DNA of 11,480 nt from a virus. The position numbers and the translations under genes were made by a program. Shown piece after piece: positions 649 through 10,071 of this stretch; the stretch's first letter is position 1; every line of letters begins with the position of its first letter. The notes beneath the pieces are model-generated. The model did not search any database, had not been told where the DNA came from, and saw only the letters and a program-made list of their open reading frames with translations. Location of the stretch: the UHGV virus genome UHGV-0171102; one strand, given 5' to 3'.

Positions 649-668
649 GCGCGATAGCGCATTTTTTT
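649..668 (+). terminator. Candidate weak intrinsic terminator after the P-like frame
   Basis: GCGC-GATA-GCGC hairpin (649-660) followed by a T7 run (662-668), a few nt after TAA 641-643. The stem is only 4 bp. Confidence 0.3.
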
Positions 669-676
669 ACGTCTCG

Positions 677-760
677 GTAATTACCTTGGAGGTAATAAAA
701 TATTCTAAAATCTATTGATTTCGTGTCTTATGTGGTTTTTAATTACCTAAGGGGTAAATC
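677..760 (+). promoter_or_regulatory. Candidate promoter/operator region upstream of the DUF1064 gene
   Basis: AT-rich intergenic region. TAATTACCT occurs twice (678-686 and 742-750), the first within the perfect palindrome GGTAATTACC (677-686). Possible -35 TTGATT (715-720) and -10 TTTAAT (738-743) with 17 bp spacing. SD AAGGGG at 749-754. Confidence 0.25.
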
Positions 761-3392: not shown

Positions 3393-4175
3393 ATGACCAC
3401 TATTACCAAAGAACGTATTGAATTGTTCATTAAAAATCCGCTTGAAAACGGGCTTACTCGTGGCGAACAAATGGAACTGGCACGAATTGCACTGGCATCA
3501 CTGGAACGCGAACTGATTCGCCACGAGCATGCCAAATGGTCTGACTCCACATTTGGCTGCGTTGGCCCCATTGGTCCACTGAAACACCTCTCAAAAGAGG
3601 CTCTGGAAGCCGCAGCCGAACCAGACGATCTCAGCGAGTGGGCTGATATGCATTTCCTGTTGTGGGATGCACAGCGCCGTGCTGGCATCAGCGATGCTGA
3701 AATTACCGCTGCTATGGAAGATAAATTGAAGATCAACATGGAGCGCCAGTGGCCTGAACCAAAAGATGGTGAGCCTCGCTTGCACATTAAAGAACCCGGC
3801 AACTCTCCGGTAATTCCGGATGGTTTATCCACGGTATGCGCTGAGGCTTATCAGGTTGTAGGAGTTATGGCAGATGCGCTTGGTGTATTCGGTGATGCAG
3901 CAGTACAGAAAGTTCTGGATAACCTGTCACAGCAAAAACTTGTTCACAGAGATGTGCTGCCGTTCTCGCTTCCGGTGACTCCGGATGGTTGGATAAGCTG
4001 TAGTGAGCGAATGCCCGCTCAAGATGATTGGATTTTAATTTATTCAAAGCACGGCGAGTATATGGCAGGACAGGTACAAGGGGAATACGTGGAGTTGAGC
4101 GACGGCACTTTATCGTGGTTAGGGAACGCCTTGTACTGGATGCCTCTACCGGAACCGCCGCAGGAGGTGAAGTGA
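3393..4175 (+). CDS. Phage protein with N-terminal MazG-like nucleotide pyrophosphohydrolase-like region (DUF550-like) and C-terminal DUF551-like domain
   Basis: ATG with SD AAGGA 7 nt upstream; 260 aa. Helical segment LSKEALEAAAEPDDLSEWADMHFLLWD...AMEDKLKINMERQW fits the MazG/HisE-like acidic-helix pattern. C-terminal ...DGWISCSERMPAQDDWILIY...WMPLPEPP is typical of DUF551. Confidence 0.8.
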   Translation: MTTITKERIELFIKNPLENGLTRGEQMELARIALASLERELIRHEHAKWSDSTFGCVGPIGPLKHLSKEALEAAAEPDDLSEWADMHFLLWDAQRRAGISDAEITAAMEDKLKINMERQWPEPKDGEPRLHIKEPGNSPVIPDGLSTVCAEAYQVVGVMADALGVFGDAAVQKVLDNLSQQKLVHRDVLPFSLPVTPDGWISCSERMPAQDDWILIYSKHGEYMAGQVQGEYVELSDGTLSWLGNALYWMPLPEPPQEVK

Positions 4176-4297
4176 TGAACAAGTGCAACGCTCTGCTTTA
4201 TGCCATGGTGATTGGTTTCGGCCTGGCTGCTGGTATCCGGGTTTATATTACCTGGGAGTCATTAATCAATCTGGCGTGGAGTGCGATTCGTGGCTAA
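4175..4297 (+). CDS. Candidate small hydrophobic (single-TM) peptide, 40 aa
   Basis: ATG 4175 overlaps the stop of the upstream gene (GTGATGA). Translation MNKCNALLYAMVIGFGLAAGIRVYITWESLINLAWSAIRG is a hydrophobic helix. The longer track ORF 4028..4297 overlaps the upstream gene out of frame. Confidence 0.35.
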   Translation: MNKCNALLYAMVIGFGLAAGIRVYITWESLINLAWSAIRG

Positions 4298-4628
4298 ATC
4301 CCCCGCAGAACGCAAAGCCGCGCAGCGCGCTCGGCAGTCCGCCGCCGGTGAGCGCAAAATTGAACTGGTGCTGGATAAGCAGGAGCAGGAAATGCTGGAG
4401 CGTAACTGTGCCACGCGTCGCCCCGGGCGTGCGCCTTACGAATTTGGTGAGTATATAGCGTTACTGACCCGCCAGGATGATGCACGCGTGCGCGGGCGTA
4501 TAAAATCGATCAGCAGAAAACGTTGCGGTAAGTGCGGCGAGAGAGTTCCAGTTAATTCATGCCCGTGTAATGGTGACTCGCAATGCTGGGTGACCAAAGG
4601 CTGGCATGAAACGAAATTAATAGTGTGA
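4281..4628 (+). CDS. Hypothetical protein with basic N-terminus and Cys-rich C-terminus (possible zinc ribbon)
   Basis: ORF of 115 aa. Start uncertain: GTG 4281 or GTG 4290, the latter with GGAG 8 nt upstream. C-terminal CGKCG...CPCNG cluster. Stop TGA lies inside the 12-bp palindrome. Confidence 0.55.
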   Translation: MRFVAKSPAERKAAQRARQSAAGERKIELVLDKQEQEMLERNCATRRPGRAPYEFGEYIALLTRQDDARVRGRIKSISRKRCGKCGERVPVNSCPCNGDSQCWVTKGWHETKLIV

Positions 4629-4648
4629 CATGTCACGAAGGTGTTATG
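4624..4648. repeat. Copy 1 of a palindromic repeat: TGTGACATGTCACG + GAA + GTGTTAT
   Basis: Perfect 12-bp palindrome GTGACATGTCAC at 4625-4636. The same 14-mer and following GTGTTAT recur at 7075-7095. Confidence 0.6.
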
Positions 4649-4858
4649 CCAAAAATACGCTACGACCTTGAAGATATGAGAGATAACTCAGCAAATTTTC
4701 CGAAAGAGGTTAAATTTCTCATGCATAAGTATGGTTGCGCCAGGAGGGATATAGTTATCGACAGTCAGCACCCTTGCGGCGAGGATGTAATTTTCATTCG
4801 CGGTAAATGGGAAGGGTATCTTGACGAGAGTTTTTACGATGAATTTGATGGACTTTGA
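4625..4858 (+). CDS. Hypothetical small protein (about 70-77 aa)
   Basis: ORF immediately upstream of terS. Start is either GTG 4625 or ATG 4646 (MPKIRYDLEDMRDN...). Contains AGA and tandem AGG AGG codons. Confidence 0.5.
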   Translation: MTCHEGVMPKIRYDLEDMRDNSANFPKEVKFLMHKYGCARRDIVIDSQHPCGEDVIFIRGKWEGYLDESFYDEFDGL

Positions 4859-4893
4859 ATACTGCCGCCAACTATGGCGGCTTTATTTTGCAT

Positions 4894-4925
4894 GGTACTA
4901 TTACCACAACGGTAACTATTACCAC
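4894..4925 (+). repeat. Tandem direct repeat GGTA(A)CTATTACCAC x2 directly upstream of the terS start
   Basis: ACTATTACCAC at 4897-4907 and 4915-4925 (period 18 bp), followed by GGTGG and ATGATG. Confidence 0.5.
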
Positions 4926-4932
4926 GGTGGTT

Positions 4933-5529
4933 ATGATGCCTGCTGAACCTAAAACCTATAAACGCAAATCAACGCAATTTAAGCCACTAACAGCAATGCA
5001 GGAGGCTTATTGCCAGTCATACATCAAAACGCCTGAAAACCAGACTCAGGCAGCGATTAACGCAGGATTCTCCCCAAATACAGCGGCAGTTAAAGCCAGT
5101 GTCATGATGCGCGATGAACGCATTCAAAAACGGATTGCCGAGTTGATGGAGGAGCGCAACAAACGAATGCGCGTCAGTGCTGATTACGTTCTCATGCGCC
5201 TGGTGGAGATCGACCAGATGGACGTGATCGACATCCTCAACGACGATGGGAGCCTTAAGCCAATCCGCGAGTGGCCGAAAATCTGGCGCACTACGCTTAG
5301 TGGCTTTGATCTGTCATCGACCATCATGAACATGAACGAGGATTCGATAGAGACAATCCTCAAAAAAATTAAATGGCCTGACAAGGTGAAGAACCTCGAA
5401 CTGATTGGTAAGCACGTCGACGTCAACGCATTCAAAGAACGCCTGGATGTTAATGTGAATGTGACAATTGCTGATCGCATAGCGGCAGCCAGGAAGAGAC
5501 TGAAAGAACGTCAGGATGGCAATCAGTGA
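4933..5529 (+). CDS. Terminase small subunit
   Basis: Protein ...INAGFSPNTAAVKASVMMRDERIQKRI... fits the small-terminase family pattern (AGYSxxxA...). Sits immediately upstream of, and overlapping, the large terminase gene. Start ambiguous (ATG 4933 or 4936; the open frame extends to TTG 4855). Confidence 0.8.
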   Translation: MMPAEPKTYKRKSTQFKPLTAMQEAYCQSYIKTPENQTQAAINAGFSPNTAAVKASVMMRDERIQKRIAELMEERNKRMRVSADYVLMRLVEIDQMDVIDILNDDGSLKPIREWPKIWRTTLSGFDLSSTIMNMNEDSIETILKKIKWPDKVKNLELIGKHVDVNAFKERLDVNVNVTIADRIAAARKRLKERQDGNQ

Positions 5530-7001
5530 CAGATACAGCGTTATCTCCTGAAGAGCAGTTAATCGAGGATATTGCAGGGTTCACTCACGATCCGCTTGGC
5601 TATGCCCTCTATGCGTTCCCGTGGGGGGAAGAGGGTACTGAACTGGCACATGCCACCGGTCCACGTCAGTGGCAGGCCGATGCGTTCCGAGAGATACGTG
5701 ATCACCTGCAGAATCCAGAGACGCGATATCAGCCGCTTATGCTGGCACGTGCTTCTGGTCACGGTATTGGTAAATCCGCATTCATCTCAATGCTGATCAA
5801 CTGGGGCATGTCCACTTGCGAGGATTGTAAGGTCGTGGTGACCGCCAACACCGACAACCAGCTACGAACGAAGACCTGGCCGGAAATTATCAAGTGGTCA
5901 AACCTTGCTATCACGAAAGACTGGTTTACCTGTACCGCTACCGCGATGTACAGCAATGACCCTGGGCACGACAAGCGGTGGCGAGCTGACGCAATCCCCT
6001 GGTCTGAGCACAACACTGAGGCATTCGCCGGACTACACAACGAGCGTAAACGCATCATCGTGGTATTTGATGAAGCGTCGAACATTGCGGATCTGGTGTG
6101 GGAAGTTGCCGAGGGTGCGCTAACGGACGAAGACACTGAGATTATCTGGGTGGCTTTCGGAAACCCTACACGTAACACCGGGCGTTTCCGTGAATGTTTC
6201 CGCAAATACAAACACCGCTGGAAAACTGCGCAGATTGACAGCAGGACGGTGGAAGGCACCAACAAACAGCAGTTGCAGAAATGGGTTGATGACTACGGGG
6301 AAGATAGCGACTTCGTTAAAATCCGTGTGCGTGGCATATTCCCTGATGCATCTGAATTGCAGTTTATCCCTACCGGTCTTACTGACGAGGCAATGAAACG
6401 GGTGGTAACTGCTGCGCAGGTGGCACATGCTCCGGTGATAATCGGCGTTGACCCGGCATACTCCGGCGTTGATGACGCTGTGATATACCTGCGGCAGGGG
6501 CTACACAGTAAGGTGCTGTGGACTGGCAACAAGACTACCGACGATCTGATTATGGCGAAGCGTATCGCTGACTTTGAAGACCAGTATCAGGCTGACGCGG
6601 TGTTCATCGACTTCGGTTACGGAACCGGTTTGAAGTCAATCGGTGACGGCTGGGGTCGTACATGGCAACTTGTTCCGTTCGGTGGCGCGTCTACTGACCA
6701 GCAGATGCTCAACAAGCGTGGGGAGATGTTCAACTCATGCAAGACATGGCTGAGGCTGGGCGGCATGCTTGATGACCAGGAAACAGCGGACGACCTGTCG
6801 GCGGCAGAGTACAAAGTTCGAGTGGACGGTAAAATCGTTATCGAACCGAAGGAAGATATCAAGGAGCGGCTTGGGCGTTCTCCTGGTAAAGGCGATGCGC
6901 TACTGCTGACGTTTGCGTTCCCGGTGTCAAAGCGCCTGCGAATTCCCGGGCAGCAGAACCAGCAAGGCAAGGCCATTACAGATTACGATCCCTATGCTTA
7001 A
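5526..7001 (+). CDS. Terminase large subunit
   Basis: 491 aa. Walker A ASGHGIGKS and Walker B IIVVFDEAS in the N-terminal half; C-terminal nuclease-like IGVDPAYSG. GTG start overlaps the terS stop (GTGA). Confidence 0.9.
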   Translation: MTDTALSPEEQLIEDIAGFTHDPLGYALYAFPWGEEGTELAHATGPRQWQADAFREIRDHLQNPETRYQPLMLARASGHGIGKSAFISMLINWGMSTCEDCKVVVTANTDNQLRTKTWPEIIKWSNLAITKDWFTCTATAMYSNDPGHDKRWRADAIPWSEHNTEAFAGLHNERKRIIVVFDEASNIADLVWEVAEGALTDEDTEIIWVAFGNPTRNTGRFRECFRKYKHRWKTAQIDSRTVEGTNKQQLQKWVDDYGEDSDFVKIRVRGIFPDASELQFIPTGLTDEAMKRVVTAAQVAHAPVIIGVDPAYSGVDDAVIYLRQGLHSKVLWTGNKTTDDLIMAKRIADFEDQYQADAVFIDFGYGTGLKSIGDGWGRTWQLVPFGGASTDQQMLNKRGEMFNSCKTWLRLGGMLDDQETADDLSAAEYKVRVDGKIVIEPKEDIKERLGRSPGKGDALLLTFAFPVSKRLRIPGQQNQQGKAITDYDPYA

Positions 7002-7666: not shown

Positions 7667-7743
7667 TGGCGTGGCATGCAGGATTCGAACCTGCGACCAA
7701 CCGCTTAGAAGGCGGTTGCTCTGTCCAACTGAGCTAATGCCAC
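7667..7743 (-). tRNA. tRNA-Arg (anticodon UCU), phage-encoded, CCA encoded
   Basis: Reverse complement GTGGCAT-TA-GCTC-AGTTGGACA-GAGC-A-ACCGC-CTTCTAA-GCGGT-TGGTC-GCAGG-TTCGAAT-CCTGC-ATGCCAC-GCCA. Acceptor (7 bp), anticodon and T stems are perfect, with a 4-bp D stem and GTTCGAATC T-loop. Anticodon TCT. Confidence 0.9.
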
Positions 7744-8170
7744 AACGCTGAGAGCACTTAGCCTGTTAAGGCACCACACTTTGTCGCGGCTCCATAAATG
7801 CTCTCATCGTTGCACCCTCGTCTCTTCCGAGGTGTCACACCGAATCGCCGGGATGGTGAATCCCCGTGCGCGGAATAAAACCGCTCGACTTGCACATTCC
7901 GGCTACCTGGTTCGTTTGCCATAGCAAGGGAGGGTGCCCCTTAAACGTATCCAGACCGCTATCGGCGCATGTGCCATACACCGTACTGCTCAAAATAAAA
8001 GCTCACCCCACCTGTTCAATTTAACGACAAGCCAGTCAGGTTAATAACCGGAATGAACTCTTTGCTTACCTGAAAGGTAATAATTAGTGCGTTAAATGTC
8101 AAGTATCTACGATAAATAAATCACATGTGGTTAAATTGGTAATAATTTAATTGCGTACGGAGTCATTGAT

Positions 8171-8377
8171 ATGTGCATGGGTAGCTCACCATCAGTGCCT
8201 GCAACACCAGAAGTTCAGGCAGCACCACAGGAGCAGGATGCCGCCGTTGTTGATGCCCGCGACGAAGAAACTCGTCGCCGTCGCGCTGCTGCTGGTCGTA
8301 GTTCTACGCTGCTTACCGGTTCTCAGGGCGACACATCAACCGCTAATACCAGCGGTAAAACGCTGCTTGGTCAGTAA
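8171..8377 (+). CDS. Small low-complexity protein (68 aa) upstream of portal
   Basis: ATG with GGAG 8 nt upstream. Its translation-initiation region CGGAGTCATTGA-N-ATG is identical to that of the portal gene. Protein is rich in A/S/T/Q/R, likely disordered. Confidence 0.5.
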   Translation: MCMGSSPSVPATPEVQAAPQEQDAAVVDARDEETRRRRAAAGRSSTLLTGSQGDTSTANTSGKTLLGQ

Positions 8378-8391
8378 CCGGAGTCATTGAA

Positions 8392-10071
8392 ATGGCGGAA
8401 ACAACTAAAGAGCGATTGAACAAACAGTTCGCACAACTTGAAAGCGAGCGTCAGTCGTTCGAGCCGCACTGGCGCGAGTTGAGTGATTACATCAACCCGC
8501 GTGGTTCCCGCTTTCTGACTTCTGAGGTCAACCGTAACGATCGACGCAATACACGCATTATTGATTCGACCGGGACTATGGCGGCGCGCACTCTCGCCAG
8601 CGGCATGATGTCAGGCATCACAAGCCCCGCGCGTCCGTGGTTTCGCCTGGCTACGCCAGATCCTGAAATGATGGATTATGGCCCTGTTAAGTTGTGGCTT
8701 GAGGCGGTGCAGAACCGCATGAACGATATATTCAATAAGTCGAATCTCTACCAGTCTCTTCCGCAGTTATACGGAAGCCTCGGCACATACAGCACTGGTG
8801 CAATGGCGGTGCTGGAGGATGACGAGGACATCATTCGCACAATGCCATTCCCGATAGGCAGTTACTACCTGGCTAACTCACCTCGTGGCAGTGTGGACAC
8901 CTGTTTTCGCAAGTTCTCTATGACTGTTCGTCAGCTTGTTCAGGAGTTCGGGCTAAATAACGTCAGCGAATCCGTAAAAAGCATGTGGGAAAGCGGCACC
9001 TACGAGAAGTGGATTGAAGTGATGCATTCGGTTTACCCGAACATTGACCGCGATACATCGAAGCTGGATAGCAAGAACAAGCCATTCAAATCGGTTTATT
9101 ACGAGGTTGGTGGCGATAACGACAAGTTGTTGCGTGAGTCCGGATTCGATGAGTTTCCAATTATGGCTCCGCGCTGGGAAGTTAACGGCGAAGATGTTTA
9201 TGGATCATCATGCCCGGGTATGCTGGCGCTTGGACCTGTTAAGGCATTGCAGCTTCTCCAGAAGCGCAAGTCGCAGTTGATTGATAAAGCCACCAATCCG
9301 CCGATGGTTGCTCCGACTTCCCTCAAGAATCAGCGCGCCTCCCTTCTTCCTGGCGACATCACGTATATCGATCAGATTACTGGTCAGGATGGTTTCAGGC
9401 CTGCTTATCTGGTTAACCCCAGTACAGCAGATCTGGTAGCAGACATTCAGGACACCCGCCAAATCATTAACAGCGCCTACTTTGTCGATCTGTTCATGAT
9501 GTTGCAGAACATCAATACCCGCTCGATGCCTGTTGAAGCGGTGATCGAAATGAAAGAAGAAAAACTTCTGATGTTGGGGCCGGTTCTGGAGCGTCTGAAC
9601 GACGAATGTCTTAATCCTCTCATTGACCGCGCTTTCTCGATGATGGTGCGTAAAAACATGCTGCCGCCCCCGCCTGACGCGATGGAAGGTATGCCCCTGA
9701 AGGTCGAATACATTTCCGTCATGGCTCAGGCGCAGAAGTCTATCGGCCTGTCCAGTCTGGCGTCCACGGTTAACTTCATTGGTCAACTTGCGCAAGCGAA
9801 ACCAGAAGCTCTCGACAAACTCAACGTTGATCAGGCAATCGATGCATTCGCTGATATGTCCGGAGTGTCTCCAACCGTCATTGTTCCGCAGGAACAGGTT
9901 GAGCAGGCTCGCCAGCAACGGGCACAGCAGCAACAGCAGCAACAAATGATGGCGATGGGGATGGCGGCGGCACAGGGTGCCAAGACGCTAAGCGAAGCTA
10001 AAACTTCGGATCCGAGTGTTTTGTCAGCTATGGCGAATGCAGTTAGTGGTCAGGGTGGGCAATCACAATGA
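8392..10071 (+). CDS. Portal (head-to-tail connector) protein, T7-like family
   Basis: 559 aa. The Q-rich C-terminal tail ...QQQQQQQMMAMGMAAAQGAK... resembles the T7 gp8 C-terminus as I recall it. Sits between the terminase and the scaffold/capsid genes. Confidence 0.85.
   Translation: MAETTKERLNKQFAQLESERQSFEPHWRELSDYINPRGSRFLTSEVNRNDRRNTRIIDSTGTMAARTLASGMMSGITSPARPWFRLATPDPEMMDYGPVKLWLEAVQNRMNDIFNKSNLYQSLPQLYGSLGTYSTGAMAVLEDDEDIIRTMPFPIGSYYLANSPRGSVDTCFRKFSMTVRQLVQEFGLNNVSESVKSMWESGTYEKWIEVMHSVYPNIDRDTSKLDSKNKPFKSVYYEVGGDNDKLLRESGFDEFPIMAPRWEVNGEDVYGSSCPGMLALGPVKALQLLQKRKSQLIDKATNPPMVAPTSLKNQRASLLPGDITYIDQITGQDGFRPAYLVNPSTADLVADIQDTRQIINSAYFVDLFMMLQNINTRSMPVEAVIEMKEEKLLMLGPVLERLNDECLNPLIDRAFSMMVRKNMLPPPPDAMEGMPLKVEYISVMAQAQKSIGLSSLASTVNFIGQLAQAKPEALDKLNVDQAIDAFADMSGVSPTVIVPQEQVEQARQQRAQQQQQQQMMAMGMAAAQGAKTLSEAKTSDPSVLSAMANAVSGQGGQSQ

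Follow-up and report, generated by a model that had tools for sequence, protein, structure and literature searches.

Predicted repressor operators and a predicted extended -10 promoter upstream of terS in an epsilon15/phiV10-like phage

Introduction

The closest described counterpart of the locus analysed here is found in the Salmonella phage epsilon15, where a repressor site is annotated immediately before terS ('protein_bind', repressor, lysogeny, at 12-27; NC_004775.2). It is one of seven annotated repressor sites in that RefSeq record, and these have the palindrome ATTACC-N5-GGTAAT in common. Rep, the repressor of SPC32H (PDB 5D50), binds palindromic DNA as a tetramer according to a secondary report (PMC9638917), and over-expression of a phiV10-type repressor brought a fall of more than 99.9% in the transcripts for holin and endolysin (PMC9782041). 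The locus described below shares with epsilon15 and SPC32H the palindrome, its genomic position, a syntenic dispersed set of copies and a homologous repressor family.

The OL and OR operators of phage lambda, bound by CI and Cro, are similar in design, being tandem palindromic 17-bp sites over the -10/+1 region that act by steric occlusion, and in both cases adjacent sites could permit cooperative or oligomeric binding. Lambda repressor controls early promoters only and the lambda late genes depend on Q antitermination, whereas the operators here precede packaging, portal, tailspike and lysis units. Inactivation of the lambda repressor occurs by RecA-mediated cleavage; the repressor considered here is reportedly inactivated by an antirepressor, and not by such cleavage. 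The C1 operators of P1 and the gp71 'stoperators' of mycobacteriophage L5 are alike in another respect, namely that many intergenic repressor sites stand ahead of operons genome-wide, so that a prophage with dispersed sites of this kind would be silenced unit by unit. However, the P1 and L5 sites are asymmetric, and L5 stoperators are orientation-dependent elongation blocks inside transcription units, whereas the sites here are symmetric and at terS lie on the promoter itself. Sigma-70 promoters of the extended -10 form (TGnTATAAT) have TG one base before a TAnnAT-type hexamer and no recognisable -35. The promoter predicted here has the same arrangement, although its hexamer, TACTAT, matches at only 4/6 positions.

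The DNA analysed (the window) is an 11,480-nt stretch of virus genome UHGV-0171102 and belongs to a Uetakevirus of the epsilon15/phiV10 kind. Identity over the region is 98% with the E. coli podophages PH444, TL-2011b, phiV10 and others, and 80-86% with the Salmonella phages epsilon15, SPN1S and SPC32H and the Enterobacter phage Tyrion, all Uetakevirus. An earlier note on this DNA had pointed out a repeat directly upstream of terS. Comparison with related sequences suggests that this repeat is probably a pair of operators, O1 and O2, for the prophage repressor, placed on an extended -10 promoter that would drive terS-terL. The site at the first copy is already annotated in epsilon15; the small additions made here are O2 as a second site, the inferred extended -10 promoter, neither of which is annotated in the records compared, and a correction of the TerS start.

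Sequences and comparisons

The comparison covered 33 distinct terS upstream sequences from three sets, comprising phage records, 80 IMG/VR loci with identical TerS, and 10 prophages of other enterobacterial species whose TerS shows 68-91% identity, found by protein alignment against genome contigs. The identical-TerS loci were used for analysis of SNPs and not of divergence. Palindromes in the window were counted as ATTACC-N5-GGTAAT with at most one mismatch and compared with 200 shuffles.

The repeat and its palindromes

Positions 4894-4938 of the window read GGTACTATTACCAC-AAC-GGTAACTATTACCAC-GGTGGTT-ATGATG. A repeat search recovered the tandem repeat with an 18-bp period that the earlier note had placed before terS, as two exact 11-nt copies of ACTATTACCAC (4897-4907 and 4915-4925). 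The GGTA(A) prefix noted for the copies was also found; with GGTA included, they are identical except for one inserted A. As a bare direct repeat the element departs only weakly from chance, one or more 11-mer repeats within 40 nt having arisen in 11% of the Markov simulations, and TRF with a score of at least 30 did not report a repeat at 4894-4938.

Each repeat unit is part of a 17-bp palindrome, ATTACC-N5-GGTAAT, on which the earlier note was silent. The two palindromes abut, with a centre-to-centre distance of 18 bp (Table 1), and this spacing necessarily gives the direct repeat GGTAAC-T-ATTACC across their junction. In the terS frame the repeat reads TITTTVTITTVV and the 4894-4938 region ...HGTITTTVTITTVVMMPAEPK; abutting palindromes of this sequence produce Thr, Ile and Val codons (ACT ATT ACC / GGT AAC) by chance. 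O2 overlaps both the terS Shine-Dalgarno sequence and the first ATG (4933).

Table 1. Positions of genes, predicted control elements and operator copies in the window
Feature	Position	Strand	Details
Operator copy	680..696	.	ATTACCTTGGAGGTAAT; perfect match; directly after a terminator-like hairpin and T-run
Promoter-like element with operator	715..758	+	TTGATT (715-720), 17-bp spacer, TTTAAT (738-743), operator ATTACCTAAGGGGTAAA (742-758)
phrog_536 'transcriptional regulator' gene	4281-4628		Just upstream of the terS region
77-aa ORF	4625-4858
Terminator-like element	4864..4889	+	Stem GCCGCC/GGCGGC, loop AACTAT, then TTTATTTT
Predicted extended -10 promoter element	4893..4901	+	TGGTACTAT (TGnTAnTAT); last 2 bases are the first 2 of O1
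Operator O1 (predicted)	4900..4916	.	ATTACC-ACAAC-GGTAAC; 11/12 against consensus ATTACC-N5-GGTAAT
Operator O2 (predicted)	4918..4934	.	ATTACC-ACGGT-GGTTAT; 11/12 against consensus
terS Shine-Dalgarno sequence	4926..4930	+	GGTGG; inside O2; columns at least 90% conserved in the alignment
terS (small terminase, Terminase_2)	4936..5529	+	Pfam PF03592, E = 1.4e-29
terL (large terminase)	5526..7001	+	Annotation of orthologues; read here as co-transcribed with terS
Operator copy	8065..8081	.	CTTACCTGAAAGGTAAT; upstream of the gp3-like/portal operon

Conservation in relatives

An alignment of terS upstream regions from related phages had been proposed in the earlier note; in the alignment made here, O1 stands before terS in 33/33 distinct sequences. 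The O1 half-sites are essentially invariant across these sequences while the 5-bp spacer is free (ACAAC, AAAAC, TGCAT, TAAAA, ATATT and others), which is the constraint pattern looked for in an operator. O1 is kept even where unrelated sequence replaces the terminator (BUCT554, Kp4865, KpST11, L096 and L097). All ten prophages from other enterobacterial species also keep O1 before terS, and most of them keep O2. Among phages with identical TerS, variable positions within 4893-4934 make up 1-2/24 in the half-sites vs 7/13 elsewhere (Fisher p = 0.001-0.004).

O2 is weaker than O1 across relatives, mostly matching at 10-11/12 positions, and is degenerate in the Klebsiella phages and L100. The linker between O1 and O2 is 1-3 bp in relatives, giving a spacing of 18 to 20 bp. 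O2 may be auxiliary, or may be shaped partly by the constraints of the Shine-Dalgarno sequence and start codon that it overlaps. The window differs here from epsilon15-type phages, in which O2 (ATTACT-TCGGT-GGTAAC) matches at 10/12 compared with the stronger 11/12 of the window, and also in the third block of O1, which is GGTAAC and not the consensus GGTAAT.

Other copies of the palindrome and the likely binding protein

The window has five matches to the palindrome (starting at 680, 742, 4900, 4918 and 8065) against 0.26 expected, a count reached by 0/200 shuffles, and all five are intergenic. The copy at 680 is syntenic with an annotated repressor site at epsilon15 35906 and with phiV10 35069, and that at 8065 with the annotated epsilon15 repressor site 2931-2947 and with phiV10 3251. 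The promoter-like element at 715-758 directly precedes the DUF1064 gene (ATG 761), with its -10 hexamer and operator in the same register as at terS. Ead/Ea22-like genes and a dATP/dGTP pyrophosphohydrolase-DUF551 gene follow in the first part of the gene order. After terL come a Gp49/Sf6-66-like gene on the minus strand, a tRNA-Arg and then gp3-like, portal and protease genes, of which the 8065 operator is followed by an ORF at 8171 and the portal gene at 8392. In phiV10 a terminator is annotated after terL.

The epsilon15 genome has 18 palindrome matches against 1.15 expected, and no shuffle reached 18. Its annotated site at 12-27 aligns with window 4901-4916, and is thus the orthologue of O1. 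In epsilon15, SPC32H and phiV10 the palindrome copies occupy syntenic intergenic positions, with a cluster on each side of the repressor gene, the densest clusters holding 3-6 copies. Single or paired copies precede the DUF1064/RuvC-type gene, terS, the gp3/portal operon, the tailspike/antirepressor region, the lysis cassette and int. A complete prophage in E. coli SCU-125, 97.6% identical to the window, has 8/8 copies within the 9.7% of its sequence that is intergenic, and three of the eight lie around the gene for the HTH repressor. In all four of these genomes (epsilon15, SPC32H, phiV10 and the SCU-125 prophage) there are copies on either side of the repressor gene and over early promoters.

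The repressor gene itself is located outside the window. The phiV10-type repressor matches SPC32H Rep (PDB 5D50) with E = 4e-42, and is only 42% identical to epsilon15 gp38. The N-terminal HTH region is the best conserved part, which fits the half-site common to both repressors. Sharing of a half-site between repressors as different as these is unusual for immunity determinants. From database annotation and the genomic distribution of the motif, we infer that Rep, and not another protein, binds ATTACC-N5-GGTAAT, and a single Rep tetramer may span O1 and O2.

The same palindromes could instead serve a Cro-like protein, which is divergently encoded, or some other regulator. In one such reading, the palindromes are bound by the Cro-like protein or by the phrog_536 regulator for lytic timing or activation of the late operons, and not for silencing of the prophage. 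The phrog_536 gene lies immediately upstream of the terS region (a search of the PDB gave no homologue for its product), copies stand ahead of every late operon (terS, portal, tailspike and lysis), and the terS promoter is weak and without a -35, as is often the case for activator-dependent promoters. The assignment of the epsilon15 sites to Rep is moreover a database annotation. However, sites centred on -10/+1 repress and do not activate, and the densest clusters lie on both sides of the repressor gene and over an early promoter with a perfect TTGACA-17-GATTAT, as is classic for operators. SPC32H Rep has also been reported to bind palindromic sites (PMC9638917). Binding by a different regulator for lytic control is therefore unlikely, though it keeps some weight, and a prophage repressor is the preferred binder of O1 and O2.

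The distribution of the motif also bears on packaging, since the earlier note had offered a terminase binding or pac-associated site among its readings. The repeat adjoins terS, where several headful phages, including P22 and SPP1, have pac. TerL of orthologues is annotated as P1 PacB-like or Sf6 gp2-like, both headful types, and several GenBank records of the group begin within about 40 bp of the repeat. These record starts look conventional, though, and differ by a few bases between records; the literature searched had no packaging-end data for Uetakevirus. A pac site would be unique in its genome, whereas each genome has about 10 or more copies of ATTACC-N5-GGTAAT, scattered over intergenic sites that include the immunity region, and a motif so dispersed cannot by itself specify a unique packaging start. 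A packaging role for the repeat is thus unlikely, and it is very improbable that TerS recognises the repeat as the start of headful packaging.

Terminator-like element, predicted promoter and RNA structure

Between the upstream ORF and the repeat lies a terminator-like element (4864-4889), which the earlier note did not mention; its GC-rich hairpin and T-run scored as an intrinsic terminator in a terminator scan. Its epsilon15 orthologue is an annotated rho-independent terminator (39646-39672) at the very end of the record. The element is kept in most relatives and is absent from BUCT554, Kp4865, KpST11, L096 and L097. It probably ends the upstream (early-right/nin-like) transcription unit.

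Directly after it, TGGTACTAT has the features of an extended -10 element, with TG at -15/-14 and a hexamer that has A-11 and T-7. All seven specified positions of TGnTAnTAT are 100% invariant in the 33 distinct sequences and both n positions vary (G/T/A and C/G/T). Among the TerS-identical phages, none of the five specified positions that lie outside O1 is variable. The predicted promoter has no -35, and a two-hexamer promoter scan of 4000-5600 reported no promoter. An extended -10 promoter needs no -35, which accounts for the blank scan and allows the terminator to abut the promoter. At terS the -10 hexamer and ATTACC share an AT, which ends the former and begins the latter. This register is found again at the strong leftward early promoter next to the repressor gene of epsilon15, SPC32H and phiV10 (TTGACA-17-GATTAT or AATTAT, then TACC).

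Two other readings of this sequence were rejected. A promoter TTGCAT-17-GGTAAC has a -35 that is not conserved in the terminator-less relatives, and its GGTAAC is without A-11. The other reading made the upstream GGTACT a third half-site for the repressor; yet the two positions at which it varies are just those fixed in genuine half-sites, and T4893, though invariant, is part of no half-site.

Transcription of terS would start near A4908, which places O1 at about -8 to +9 and O2 at about +11 to +27, so that bound repressor would block polymerase. The proposed control is then as follows. A repressor of the SPC32H Rep / epsilon15 gp38 / phiV10 p40 family would bind O1 and O2. In the lysogen it would occlude RNA polymerase from the promoter that drives terS-terL, and the packaging genes would be off. 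Inactivation of the repressor by antirepressor would free the terS promoter. A separate promoter for terS fits the pattern of the genus, in which every transcription unit has a repressor site. In phages of the phiV10 type, which serve as O157 reporter phages, the genes for packaging appear to be under their own repressor-controlled promoter without a -35.

Control at the level of RNA was another suggestion of the earlier note. On transcripts that read through the terminator, the palindromes nest into a hairpin (4890-4943) that would bury the terS Shine-Dalgarno sequence and AUGs and limit translation. The hairpin has an MFE of -20.7 kcal/mol (z = -2.9), and 1/200 shuffles folds as well. Comparable hairpins are predicted in several relatives, the Kp4865 stem GGCATGGTA/TACCATGCC being perfect, and at one outer pair AU has changed to GC; the covariation score was reached by only 6/500 shuffles. 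Against this, the consensus fold over 32 distinct sequences amounts to no more than -5.35 kcal/mol (covariation term -0.39), pairs of the outer helix are disrupted in 10-17/32 sequences, and SNPs at 4895 are uncompensated. Pairing in the inner hairpin falls on the invariant half-sites of the operators, an RNA begun at the predicted start (~4908) has no 5' arm of the hairpin, and no Rfam family matched it. A hairpin is thus predicted in the window, but its covariation is marginal and it seems poorly maintained in relatives, and we regard RNA control of terS translation as quite unlikely. Of the regulatory readings offered in that note, the general one of a DNA element in the terS 5' region stands, while none of the specific proposals finds support.

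A combination of the two layers can be envisaged, in which a Rep tetramer lies across O1-O2 and the RNA hairpin silences TerS on terminator read-through transcripts. Translation would then be confined to transcripts initiated at the promoter, without the 5' arm, and the lysogen chromosome would be shielded from stray terminase. Such a two-layer failsafe on the terminase is distinctly improbable, and repression at O1 and O2 remains the preferred explanation.

Start of terS

The terS reading frame is open from TTG 4855 to 5529, as the earlier note had stated, and the 224-aa TerS that starts at this TTG is used in the phiV10 record and by PGAP (YP_512255.2, WP_001090120.1). Translated in this way, the repeat would form part of a Thr/Ile/Val-rich N-terminal extension of TerS. 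The TTG shares bases with the stop codon that ends the upstream ORF, and epsilon15-type relatives have the frame open as well. In other relatives, however, the frame is interrupted by a TAA inside O1 (three Klebsiella phages), by a TAG (BUCT554), or by a 2-bp insertion between O1 and O2 (BUCT554 and L097). The terminator hairpin lies within the supposed extension, conservation tracks the palindrome half-sites and not codons, and the Terminase_2 domain starts at residue 45 of the long form, past the start of the short form. A translated extension, as proposed in the earlier note, is therefore hardly credible.

The only start that is universal among relatives is the ATG before PAEPK/PKDPK (4936 in the window), with the conserved Shine-Dalgarno sequence GGTGG immediately ahead of it. 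The adjacent ATG 4933, an alternative start, has become ATT or ACG in three haplotypes that encode identical TerS, and of the two ATGs only the second exists in epsilon15-type phages. Judged from these alignments, ATG 4936 is most likely the true start of terS, and the TTG 4855 start of the RefSeq protein is most likely an over-extension. The extra 27 residues would then be an artefact of a frame that is open through the terminator-like element, the predicted promoter and both operators.

The likeness to Thr/Ile-rich attenuator leader peptides that had been remarked on also fails to hold, as the tract has no stop codon of its own before terS, the terminator is upstream of it and not downstream, and Rfam gave no match. 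Explained as a standard operator pair, the repeat is not one to pursue as a pac site, an attenuator or a novel TerS domain. In the Tyrion record, an RBS is annotated at the position equivalent to GGTGG 4926-4930.

Start site of terS and spacing of the operators

Public records place the start of terS at an upstream TTG, which gives a protein of 224 aa (YP_512255.2 for phiV10 in RefSeq, and WP_001090120.1 from the E. coli PGAP annotation). In this longer product, TAANYGGFILHGTITTTVTITTVV is terminator, promoter and operator DNA read as protein (window 4855-4935), the operator being a 17-bp palindrome and putative site of the prophage repressor. Comparison with relatives indicates that the true start is ATG 4936, giving a TerS of 197 aa.

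Operators also occur in pairs elsewhere. Rightward of the repressor gene, two operators lie without a linker, 17 bp centre-to-centre, in epsilon15 (33340-33373) and SPC32H (34389-34422), whereas the paired operators before terS are spaced 18-20 bp apart. Paired-operator spacing is therefore flexible in this phage family.

The arrangement at terS recurs before the DUF1064 gene (window 649-758), with a terminator-like hairpin and T-run followed by a perfect operator and then by promoter-like hexamers that overlap a second operator. This second operator has in its spacer the SD of the gene, whose ATG is at 761.

Further motifs, a mosaic insertion and a tRNA gene

Several operator copies are followed, at a distance of 25-60 bp, by a second repeated motif, CAT(A)TGTGGTTT. 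Copies of this motif lie within or beside promoter spacers before the DUF1064, gp3/portal, tailspike and lysis units, and the motif could be the site of another regulator, e.g. the protein of phrog_536, a predicted transcriptional regulator gene upstream of terS.

Features located in the window and in related phages
Feature	Position	Strand	Remarks
Terminator-like hairpin + T-run	about 649-669
Operator	680-696		perfect match
TTGATT-17-TTTAAT			promoter-like; overlaps second operator at 742-758
CAT(A)TGTGGTTT copy	730-738		ATGTGGTTT
CAT(A)TGTGGTTT copy	8126-8133		ATGTGGTT
CAT(A)TGTGGTTT copy	epsilon15 24754
CAT(A)TGTGGTTT copies	phiV10 20924, 24742, 35119
77-aa ORF, phrog_1541	4625-4858		between phrog_536 gene and terminator
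tRNA-Arg (anticodon TCT)	7667-7743	-	between Gp49/Sf6-66-like gene and gp3/portal operon

Epsilon15, TL-2011b and most relatives lack the 77-aa ORF, a small mosaic insertion that explains why the 80% BLAST matches come in two pieces. The tRNA-Arg is present at the same position in SPC32H and in the E. coli SCU-125 prophage; the phiV10 and epsilon15 records have no tRNA-Arg annotated at the matching position.

Positions 4625-4636 of the window, where the phrog_536 gene has its stop, form a perfect 12-bp palindrome, GTGACATGTCAC. It is kept in epsilon15, SPC32H, PAT1, TL-2011b and Tyrion, even where the flanks have diverged, with one mismatch in phiV10, and may be a further protein-binding site.
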